A stretch of 64,000 nucleotides of DNA from a virus (lineage: Duplodnaviria > Caudoviricetes). A program made the position numbers and the translations under genes. Location of the stretch: the IMG/VR virus record IMGVR_UViG_3300042452_000698, positions 1 to 64,000 of that record; one strand, written 5' to 3'. Below are positions 25,679 through 27,062 of the stretch, piece after piece (positions within the stretch are counted from its first letter, which is position 1; each line of letters begins with the position of its first letter). The notes beneath the pieces were generated by a model, which had not been told where the DNA came from, made no database searches, and saw nothing but the letters and a program-made list of their open reading frames with translations.

Positions 25679-26538
25679 ATTATTCCATTCTTTTTTAATA
25701 GAGTGTTAAAGCTATATTTCTTAAATATGTAATTTAGCTCTTCTGAATCTCTTATAATATAATTTTTCTGCCCCAAGACCGTTCCTGTTTTAGCCATATA
25801 AAAGTCTGTATTCTCAAAAAATACTTCTGTTGGCTCTACTATGTTTATATTTATTTTATCCCTATCGTATTTTGTACTATTGCCTAGCCACCCCTCCAAA
25901 TCTCTTACTAAGATTTCAAATAAGTTTATTTCTAAGGCTCTTAATCCCATTAGAAGTGGAGATAAAAACCCGTTTGGTATTCTATTCCACTTTGATAAAA
26001 ATAGTGGCCTTCCAAGTATTAAATAAACATCTGTGCATCCAGAGTTAACGCATTTTTCAATTGGGGCTATTTCTCTACTACCAGCGTCAACCCATCCATT
26101 TCTATCTTGAACTAATCCGCTTATAGCTACGCTTCCTAAAATAGCTTCTTTGAATGTGTTTAAGTCTGAACTTTTATTGGAAACATATTCTAGATAACCA
26201 TCTAAAATATTCATTCTACAAACTACGCTTTCGCACGTTGCTGGATTTTTAAGGGCTTTTATAACTATTTTTTCCATAGGTTTTTGATTTAATAATCCAG
26301 ATTTCCACAAAAATGAATAGTTCAAACCAAAAACGCTAAAGATATTTTTTATATCAGCCCATAGATTGACAAGCCCGTTTGGACCCAAATGAGAATATGC
26401 GGCAGAACAAATAGATCCAGAAGATATTCCTATTGTATAATCAGCTACCACGCCTTTTTCATATAAAGACAAAGCTATGCCAGCTTGGATAGAGCCTCTA
26501 GCGCCTTCTCCTGTAAAACAAAACCCAGTTTTTTTCAT
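25675..26538 (-). CDS. Patatin-like phospholipase
   Basis: Oxyanion loop FTGEGARG, nucleophile GISSG (GxSxG), catalytic Asp in WVDAG. Confidence 0.85.
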   Translation of the reverse strand: MKKTGFCFTGEGARGSIQAGIALSLYEKGVVADYTIGISSGSICSAAYSHLGPNGLVNLWADIKNIFSVFGLNYSFLWKSGLLNQKPMEKIVIKALKNPATCESVVCRMNILDGYLEYVSNKSSDLNTFKEAILGSVAISGLVQDRNGWVDAGSREIAPIEKCVNSGCTDVYLILGRPLFLSKWNRIPNGFLSPLLMGLRALEINLFEILVRDLEGWLGNSTKYDRDKININIVEPTEVFFENTDFYMAKTGTVLGQKNYIIRDSEELNYIFKKYSFNTLLKKNGII

Positions 26539-27062
26539 GCTAGTTCTCTCTCTTTTCTTGGAGAAGCTCCAAATAATGATACAATATATTCTAAAATATT
26601 CCAGAAAAATAACTTATCTAAAACTGGATTAGAGTAATTTGATAGAACACAATAATATCTATTAAATGGTTTTGTGTGATGAATAGAGTGTTGCCTTGGA
26701 GATTGTAGTAAACCAAGATCTTGAAAAAATCTAATAAATTTGTTGCATCTTAAGTGTGACCAACAATGTATTTCGTTTGATTGAGACACTATCAACATTG
26801 TAAGCACTAAGAAATATAGCTGAAAATAGTAAAATAAACTAGCAAGTAATATACATGGAATTAGTGTTGTGGCATTTCTATAAAGATATGATCCTCTACA
26901 AAATTTAGTCATGTGCTTATGATGCTCTATATTTGGCTTAATTATATATTTACCAACTAGTGGCCAATCTGGATTGCCATATCTATCCTCCCACCAGTGA
27001 AATATTCCAGATATTAATTCTGCTAAAAAGAACGCAGCTATGAAATATAGTATATAGTACAT
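26535..27062 (-). CDS. carF: CarF/TMEM189/FAD4-family membrane lipid desaturase
   Basis: SGIFHWWED, EHH, NEIHCWSH, QSPRQHSIHH, YYCVLS: 8 conserved His plus hydrophobic TM segments. Confidence 0.88.
   Translation of the reverse strand: MYYILYFIAAFFLAELISGIFHWWEDRYGNPDWPLVGKYIIKPNIEHHKHMTKFCRGSYLYRNATTLIPCILLASLFYYFQLYFLVLTMLIVSQSNEIHCWSHLRCNKFIRFFQDLGLLQSPRQHSIHHTKPFNRYYCVLSNYSNPVLDKLFFWNILEYIVSLFGASPRKERELA

Follow-up and report, generated by a model that had tools for sequence, protein, structure and literature searches.

Does a bacteriophage carry a lipid-modifying enzyme of the family that holds CarF, TMEM189 and FAD4, and if so, of which kind? The question is raised by a small minus-strand gene in IMG/VR virus record IMGVR_UViG_3300042452_000698 (Duplodnaviria; Caudoviricetes), an 88,530-bp record with a CheckV completeness of about 55%, of which the first 64 kb form the window analysed here. 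The original prediction, made from the letters of this DNA, had taken the 175-aa product for a minimal CarF-type desaturase with an intact eight-histidine centre and for a new class of auxiliary gene. We found that the protein is a member of family PF10520 (Lipid_desat) with an intact metal centre and the fold of a membrane di-metal enzyme, that its gene is accessory to the phage, and that relatives are widely distributed among phages. Judging from sequence and a structural model, we think it probable that the gene encodes a functional, membrane-embedded, O2-dependent di-iron desaturase consisting of the catalytic core only, which would act on host membrane lipids, possibly as a hydroxylase.

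A bare PF10520 domain with an intact metal centre

Comparison with Pfam matched the protein to PF10520 with an E value of 2.3e-40 (138.9 bits against a cut-off of 26.4), profile positions 2-174 of 175 being aligned to residues 12-170, and a whole-genome Pfam scan gave the same result for this gene. The full-length match bears out the CarF/TMEM189/FAD4 family assignment of the original prediction and also its word "minimal", the sequence being the bare Pfam domain. A weak, sub-threshold match to the FA_hydroxylase family PF04116 (E 1.4e-4) was the other Pfam result, and PHROGs held no family for the protein. All eight family histidines that had been claimed were found (H22, H47, H48, H99, H103, H125, H128 and H129), and their columns are the only invariant ones in an alignment of 143 diverse homologues. 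Asp26, which lies four residues after His22 in parallel with H96/D100 of mouse PEDS1, is nearly invariant in the same alignment, and one further histidine of the protein, H50, is not conserved. At the level of sequence, eight-histidine conservation combined with the PF10520 match is far beyond chance. Furthermore, a phmmer search of 1.84 billion cluster representatives returned 1,696 relatives at E <= 1e-3, with 40 of them at E <= 1e-30.

With the 143-homologue alignment, AlphaFold2 (AF2) gave a model with a mean predicted local distance difference score (pLDDT) of 97.3 and a predicted template modelling score (pTM) of 0.91. In this model an N-terminal helix (residues 2-27) leads into the first histidine box, and a hydrophobic hairpin follows between the second and third boxes (hydropathy peak at 67-93; AF2 helices 59-79 and 83-92). 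The closest solved fold, and the only one that stood out from the rest, is that of yeast Scs7p (PDB 4ZR0/4ZR1), a membrane di-metal hydroxylase, with a Z score of 7.1 over 143 aligned residues, a root-mean-square deviation of 3.9 Å and an alignment that spans the whole model, compared with a Z score of 4.2 for the runner-up structure. Foldseek also ranked Scs7p at the top, weakly and with no match at E <= 0.001, and a family-profile sequence search of the PDB gave no match. Scs7p differs from the phage protein in being a sphingolipid alpha-hydroxylase with a fused cytochrome b5 domain, at 15% identity, and the match shows a shared superfamily fold only.

Placement relative to PEDS1/CarF and FAD4

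CarF and TMEM189 are PF10520 proteins with the eight histidines in the same boxes and at the same spacing, with Asp at +4, and with the membrane di-iron fold that is predicted for the phage protein. In an alignment of 218 rows, the H22-D26-H47/48 spacing of the phage protein equals H96-D100-H121/122 of mouse PEDS1 without gaps. The two differ from it in length (270-281 aa against 175), the phage protein having no N-terminal extension, and apparently in their helices, of which four have been shown experimentally in CarF, whereas hydropathy and AF2 suggest three hydrophobic ones in the phage protein. True PEDS1/CarF enzymes carry, in addition to the eight common histidines, a ninth essential one, H113 in CarF and H131 in mouse (PMC9131029), and in mouse PEDS1 Asp100 is essential and mutation of Phe118 leaves 6% activity (PMC8960569). 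At the ninth-histidine column, nine residues after the HH box and with a gap-free alignment between, the phage protein has Gly57, and at the Phe118 column it has Asn44, an Asn that is invariant in its close family.

These two columns vary together across the 218 rows. The Phe118 column holds Asn in 161 rows and Phe in 44, and the ninth-histidine column holds His in 45, of which every row except one has Phe at position -3 from the HH box. Two signatures of co-occurring residues were accordingly seen, 'SFREHH..xHD..ETNG' and 'PNxxHH..P..F..G.Y..RN'. The sole NCBIfam match of the phage protein is the CarF equivalog NF045946, at 89.1 bits against a cut-off of 500. Because of this score, together with Gly57 and Asn44, we rejected a PEDS1/CarF identity and regard the protein as a PF10520 member that is not a PEDS1, so that the CarF-type, plasmalogen-making character originally proposed for it falls away.

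Arabidopsis FAD4 is likewise a PF10520 protein with eight histidines and no ninth, plants usually having Arg there (PMC9131029), and neither plant FAD4 nor the alphaproteobacterial homologues, which also lack the ninth histidine, complement a carF mutant (PMC9131029). FAD4 is a trans-delta3 desaturase of the sn-2 16:0 chain of chloroplast phosphatidylglycerol, and its use of an intact phospholipid is our working analogy. Asp100 and Phe118 are reported to be conserved in both PEDS1 and FAD4 (PMC8960569), whereas the phage protein has Asn before the HH, and it has no plastid-targeting region, unlike FAD4. By the descriptions of FAD4 residues in these papers, N44 and G57 would set the phage protein apart from a typical FAD4.

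On the same residues we assign the protein to a clade that we call N-type, with Asn three residues before the HH and no ninth histidine. The clade is common to alphaproteobacteria, many phages and prophages, and is uncharacterised. Because the protein groups with this clade, no ether-lipid substrate is implied in the host, for which ether or phospholipid substrates had been predicted. Bacterial PF10520 homologues, for example those of Hyphomonadaceae, are the closest non-phage relatives at 31-39% identity and resemble the phage protein in the 'PN..HH ... RN' signature, in having no ninth histidine and in size (about 170-240 aa); the Hyphomonadaceae homologues differ in being chromosomal and in forming a separate clade.

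A maximum-likelihood tree was built from 116 rows (IQ-TREE, LG+C20 with posterior mean site frequencies; supports are ultrafast bootstrap / SH-like approximate likelihood ratio), with amoebozoan and heterolobosean PEDS1-like proteins as the PEDS1-signature outgroup. The PEDS1-signature proteins split off at 100/100, and the alphaproteobacterial chromosomal clade was recovered at 95/89. One group of 74 rows took in every one of the 11 viral and 21 Planctomycetota rows, the latter mostly from prophage-like loci; its support was weak in the careful search (46/82) and 97 in the quick one. The tree singled out no donor lineage, which phylogeny had been expected to give. The nearest relative of the phage protein is a metagenomic protein at 65% identity, and a long-standing gene pool circulating among phages would fit the relationships better than a recent capture from a host.

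Relatives in phages and prophages, and the accessory cassette

The gene is not confined to this phage. A family-alignment scan of IMG/VR gave relatives on at least 115 contigs, 80 loci being kept, and an isolated phage in GenBank has one as well; a scan with the single protein gave 11 loci at 38-58% identity. The 80 loci form three classes by GC content, at 29-37% (eight loci), 62-71% (about 55) and 52-55% (about 15). Among the low-GC loci, which resemble the window, are complete records of 145-186 kb and a T4-like record of 390 kb, and several of these loci have a lone plus-strand desaturase among minus-strand genes such as those for DNA ligase and endonuclease VII. In the 62-71% class the desaturase often adjoins a convergent tyrosine integrase, the integrase family being present in 24 loci, and such an integrase-adjacent site is a classic position for lysogenic-conversion genes. 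An example is L107:4932-5840, which together with 23 other IMG/VR loci (L076-L117; about 65% GC) has the convergent integrase beside the desaturase; in loci of this type a metallo-phosphoesterase gene lies upstream of the desaturase.

The 52-55% class matches the closest 'cellular' relatives, which are found in Pirellulaceae/Pirellulales genomes at 40-46% identity. In Pirellulaceae the gene is part of prophage-like modules, of which two layouts were seen, one with portal, protease-capsid fusion, decoration protein, trypsin-like protein, desaturase, tail completion and major tail genes, and the other with trypsin-like protein, desaturase, and small and large terminase. The complete chromosome of Pirellulaceae strain SH501 carries two copies of the desaturase. 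PF10520 occurs in 6 of 81 sampled Pirellulaceae genomes, a sporadic occurrence that fits mobile cargo. Furthermore, in 15 out of 15 clustered Pirellulaceae-type loci a trypsin-like (PF13365) gene directly precedes the desaturase and often overlaps it.

This pair (for example L019:4866-5969 and 5920-6540; also L015, L018, L020, L022, L024, L026, L029, L031, L033-L036, L043 and L009) has two kinds of site, either flanked by the genes for head decoration and the head-tail adaptor or immediately ahead of those for terminase. The window phage has a gene for a 260-aa protein with a HESAH motif before its desaturase, and not one for a trypsin-like protein. A recurring link of an exported peptidase-like protein with the desaturase may exist. 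In a locus from an Aureliella metagenome-assembled genome (L023:6924-9308) the gene downstream of the desaturase encodes a 794-aa protein with leucine-rich repeats and an AhpC/TSA-redoxin part, an arrangement that was seen once. Plant FAD4 depends on peroxiredoxin Q, and the leucine-rich-repeat/AhpC-TSA protein could be a redox partner of the desaturase. The SH501 chromosome also has a third PF10520 copy, of a different type, at about 400.9 kb (L056:1459-2028), with Phe before the HH box, Cys at the ninth-histidine column, a 'DTNGD' motif and 173 bits to the CarF model; by these features it looks nearer to the PEDS1/FAD4 side than the phage type does, and similar high-scoring copies are present in two other genomes of the family (G057 and G083).

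Among cultured phages, Erythrobacter phage vB_EliS-L02 encodes a 32%-identical homologue (UIS25202.1; L054:2337-2873), whose gene has phoH on one side and the portal gene on the other. Annotated as a hypothetical protein, the homologue is absent from the 14 auxiliary genes discussed in the genome paper of this phage, in which neither 'desaturase' nor 'lipid' is mentioned. A 595-kb uncultured phage has a PF10520 homologue as well. Truly chromosomal copies are found in Hyphomonadaceae, where 26 of 81 sampled genomes have a PF10520 match and where the Hyphomonas jannaschiana copy adjoins lepA; the chromosomal neighbourhoods in this family, with histidine kinases, a NAD-binding/DoxX protein and lepA, gave no functional hint.

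In the window itself, positions 1-25.5 kb carry on their plus strand a replication module, which comprises genes for a RecA/UvsX-like protein, DnaB, primase, an exonuclease, a DNA polymerase in two parts and glycosyltransferases. Very large tail and virion genes occupy the minus strand from 29 kb onwards, and tail-fibre and virion-protein families are represented in the remainder of the record. With replication module and virion genes in one virus record, the gene is indeed phage-encoded, as had been predicted. A megablast search with 20 kb of window sequence returned no match among isolated phages, a tRNA scan for host inference found no tRNA, and PHROGs had no family for most of the cassette and tail proteins.

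The desaturase gene takes third place in a compact minus-strand cassette that comes after the last virion-type genes, in the order CAP protein, 260-aa protein, desaturase and patatin, with a 30-aa hydrophobic open reading frame (ORF) at the end (Table 1). The patatin start overlaps the desaturase stop (ATGA), and the patatin translation shows GxGxxG, GxSxG and D-A-G motifs; its link to the desaturase was seen only in the window phage. The 260-aa protein has no match in Pfam, PHROGs, NCBIfam or PADLOC and falls in phage-dominated clusters of hypothetical proteins in the ESM Atlas. Its homologues lie close to the desaturase in loci L002 and L004, and homologues of the CAP protein do so in L002 and L007.

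Table 1. Desaturase gene, its motifs and predicted helices, and the other cassette genes (positions in the 64-kb window)
Feature	Position	Strand	Basis or remark
PF10520 Lipid_desat protein, 175 aa, bare domain of the family	26535..27062	-	ATG start; Pfam, AF2
N-terminal transmembrane helix, residues 1-23 (predicted)	26994..27062	-	hydropathy scan; AF2 helix 2-27
His22, first His box HWWED (FHW motif)	26997..26999	-	invariant in 143 homologues
His47-His48, EHH box, Asn44 upstream	26919..26924	-	PEDS1-type proteins have Phe at the Asn44 column
Hydrophobic helical hairpin, residues about 59-92, between His boxes 2 and 3 (predicted)	26787..26888	-	hydropathy, AF2
His99...His103, NEIHCWSH box	26754..26768	-	both columns invariant
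His125...His128-His129, QHSIHH box	26676..26690	-	three columns invariant
CAP/YkwD-family small protein, first cassette gene	27868..28239	-	PF00188 E 6e-19; TIGR02909 YkwD 4e-20
260-aa protein, hydrophobic N-terminus, HESAH motif	27065..27847	-	stops 2 nt before desaturase start
Patatin-like phospholipase	25675..26538	-	PF01734 E 8.4e-7, 29.8 bits vs cut-off 27.7
30-aa hydrophobic peptide ORF, 3' of patatin, where the early module converges	25586..25678	-	

A colinear relative, L055, has tail genes 37-50% identical and early genes up to 78% identical to those of the window phage. The whole cassette is absent from it, a 237-aa gene directly meeting the convergent early module, and a 79-kb fragment of L055 has no PF10520 match. 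Because L055 has neither the cassette at this place nor PF10520, we consider the cassette to be accessory cargo at a module junction, and the junction of the convergent modules looks like a hot spot for cargo. The site in L055 (12650-14807) holds only a 137-aa ORF on the opposite strand, compared with the five-ORF cassette plus a 115-aa gene (25179-25526) in the window. Between the convergent early and late blocks of the window, at 25560-25600, a GC-rich hairpin is followed by a T-run, and this predicted element may be a two-way terminator.

Proposed function, competing explanations and meaning

Membrane di-iron desaturases need O2 and an electron donor. What we infer for the phage enzyme concerns its activity, substrate, double-bond position and benefit to the phage. 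The gene would be carried as a moron, or as an accessory gene akin to auxiliary metabolic genes (AMGs), co-oriented and packed at the end of the virion block, and its product, with a predicted architecture of one N-terminal transmembrane helix, a helical hairpin and cytoplasmic histidine boxes, would enter the inner membrane of the host during infection. A reductant of the host would supply the electrons, given that the 88.5 kb of the record yielded no gene for AhpC/TSA, a 2Fe-2S ferredoxin or cytochrome b5. Both characterised PF10520 branches act on intact glycerophospholipids near the glycerol (PMC9131029, PMC8960569, PMC13012113), their bonds being the delta-1' bond of the sn-1 alkyl chain and the trans-delta-3 bond of the sn-2 acyl chain. 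By analogy with these branches, the phage enzyme would desaturate an acyl or alkyl chain of an intact lipid of the host membrane, with the new double bond probably lying close to the glycerol end, and the altered properties of the envelope would favour the phage. The patatin and the exported-looking proteins at the end of the virion block suggest envelope remodelling late in infection, and the sites next to integrases and within the structural modules of prophages suggest that lysogens express the gene as a moron.

Several observations weigh against a functional phage lipid desaturase. The N-type clade is uncharacterised throughout, and enzyme activity is extrapolated to it. Its viral-plus-prophage group is the weakly supported one, and a redox partner is missing from the 88.5 kb of a record that is about 55% complete. 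A promoter and terminator scan gave nothing above chance and did not list the 25560-25600 hairpin, and late co-expression of the cassette is therefore read from gene order and overlaps only. A Bradyrhizobium homologue is reported not to complement carF (PMC9131029), a result that says only what the clade does not do and in which the N-type status of the homologue is assumed. The chemistry may also differ, because Asn stands in place of the Phe whose mutation cripples mouse PEDS1. Lastly, sequence does not tell desaturases from hydroxylases in this superfamily, and a hydroxylase has the nearest solved fold, just as the sub-threshold PF04116 match is to a hydroxylase family.

The solved fold and the PF04116 match also speak for a di-iron membrane oxygenase with another chemistry or substrate, one whose product could be a hydroxylated fatty acyl or sphingoid chain, or else a desaturated non-glycerolipid (for example a hopanoid, a carotenoid, a quinone tail or a lipid A acyl chain). 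The replacement of the substrate-side residues that mark PEDS1 fits such an enzyme, as do the Erythrobacter and Novosphingobium settings of some homologues, both genera being sphingolipid producers. Yet both characterised PF10520 branches desaturate glycerophospholipids, and the Scs7p match is modest and may reflect the common fold only, so that we hold this explanation to be rather unlikely while giving it real weight. For a true plasmanylethanolamine desaturase (CarF/PEDS1), which would produce plasmalogens in a host with ether lipids, the shared Pfam family, the eight histidines with the essential Asp and the CarF model as the only NCBIfam match can be cited; we judge it improbable, given a score far below the equivalog cut-off, Gly and Asn at two key PEDS1 columns, and a position outside the F/H-signature clade that splits off with full support. 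The alphaproteobacterial homologue that has been tested does not complement carF, and the aerobic plasmalogen pathway of bacteria is reported to be concentrated in Myxococcota (PMC13012113).

The gene might instead be a moron whose benefit is protective, switched on in prophages or late during infection and causing an envelope change that blocks superinfection or aids lysis together with the patatin, with catalysis secondary or absent. Its sites are typical of morons (next to an integrase, within structural modules, or alone on the opposite strand), it adjoins a patatin lipase and exported-looking proteins in the window phage, and the trypsin-like gene precedes it in the 15 clustered Pirellulaceae-type loci. 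However, none of the desaturase, patatin, 260-aa and CAP proteins has a PADLOC match at E <= 0.01, the patatin link is confined to the window phage, and the fact that every metal ligand is strictly conserved speaks for selection on catalysis; we see only a small chance for this explanation. To cellular contamination or a chimeric assembly, which a metagenomic fragment of about 55% completeness might invite, we give almost no credence, because the gene overlaps or abuts its neighbours in a continuous minus-strand block that runs on from the tail genes, because its GC content (0.30) fits that of the phage (0.339), and because relatives are present in complete viral records and in a cultured phage.

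A functional phage lipid desaturase would not be without precedent. The lipid desaturases known from phages are the DesC-like delta-9 enzymes of cyanomyophages (vFAD), which are of another family (PMC5776448), in agreement with the remark in the original prediction that known viral desaturases are of other types. Like the phage protein they are phage-encoded membrane di-iron auxiliary enzymes; they differ in their unrelated family, in their HXXXHH/HXXXXH boxes, in their restriction to cyanomyophages and in a demonstrated delta9 activity on C16 acyl lipids (PMC5776448). Our literature search found no paper that reports a PF10520 gene in a phage, so the proposal of a new auxiliary-gene class may stand as far as the family goes and fails in its CarF-type label. 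A family-wide survey of 2026 mentions neither phages nor Planctomycetota, and its tree collapses an all-bacterial clade of 229 sequences whose members are not described (PMC13012113); this collapsed clade may be the N-type branch. The fold, the family and the idea of a phage desaturase were thus already known, the N-type subfamily is uncharacterised, and its wide distribution in phages and prophages appears to be unreported.

The N-type genes add a second, unrelated desaturase family in phages to the DesC type, in at least four phage backgrounds: large phages of low GC content, to which the window phage belongs, temperate phages of high GC content, prophages of Pirellulaceae, and a cultured phage of Erythrobacter. 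We tentatively propose, as a possibility that we favour less than not, that the minimal N-type enzymes are a widespread and unrecognised class of phage and prophage lipid editors, which would make a lipid absent from the uninfected host. If this were true, a head-group-proximal trans or vinyl bond, for example, could give a membrane lipid specific to virocells or lysogens, the new lipid would serve infection, lysis or superinfection exclusion, and much of the 'bacterial' distribution of the clade, as in Pirellulaceae, would really be prophage-borne. Genome surveys should also be read with the warning that prophage cargo accounts for some of the 'bacterial' occurrences of the family. The compact 175-aa phage versions and the cultured Erythrobacter phage-host pair could help to de-orphanise the bacterial branch, vB_EliS-L02 being a cultured phage with a cultured aerobic host and hence a ready experimental system.

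Two further features were observed in the early module of the window. At 10597-14812 two ORFs, of 542 and 520 aa, encode the DNA polymerase; they correspond to successive stretches of a single PHROG polymerase family and are separated by two small ORFs (226 and 122 aa). Towards the end of the module, at 23657-24424, a 255-aa protein matches HNH/homing-endonuclease PHROGs and is 69% identical in L055.

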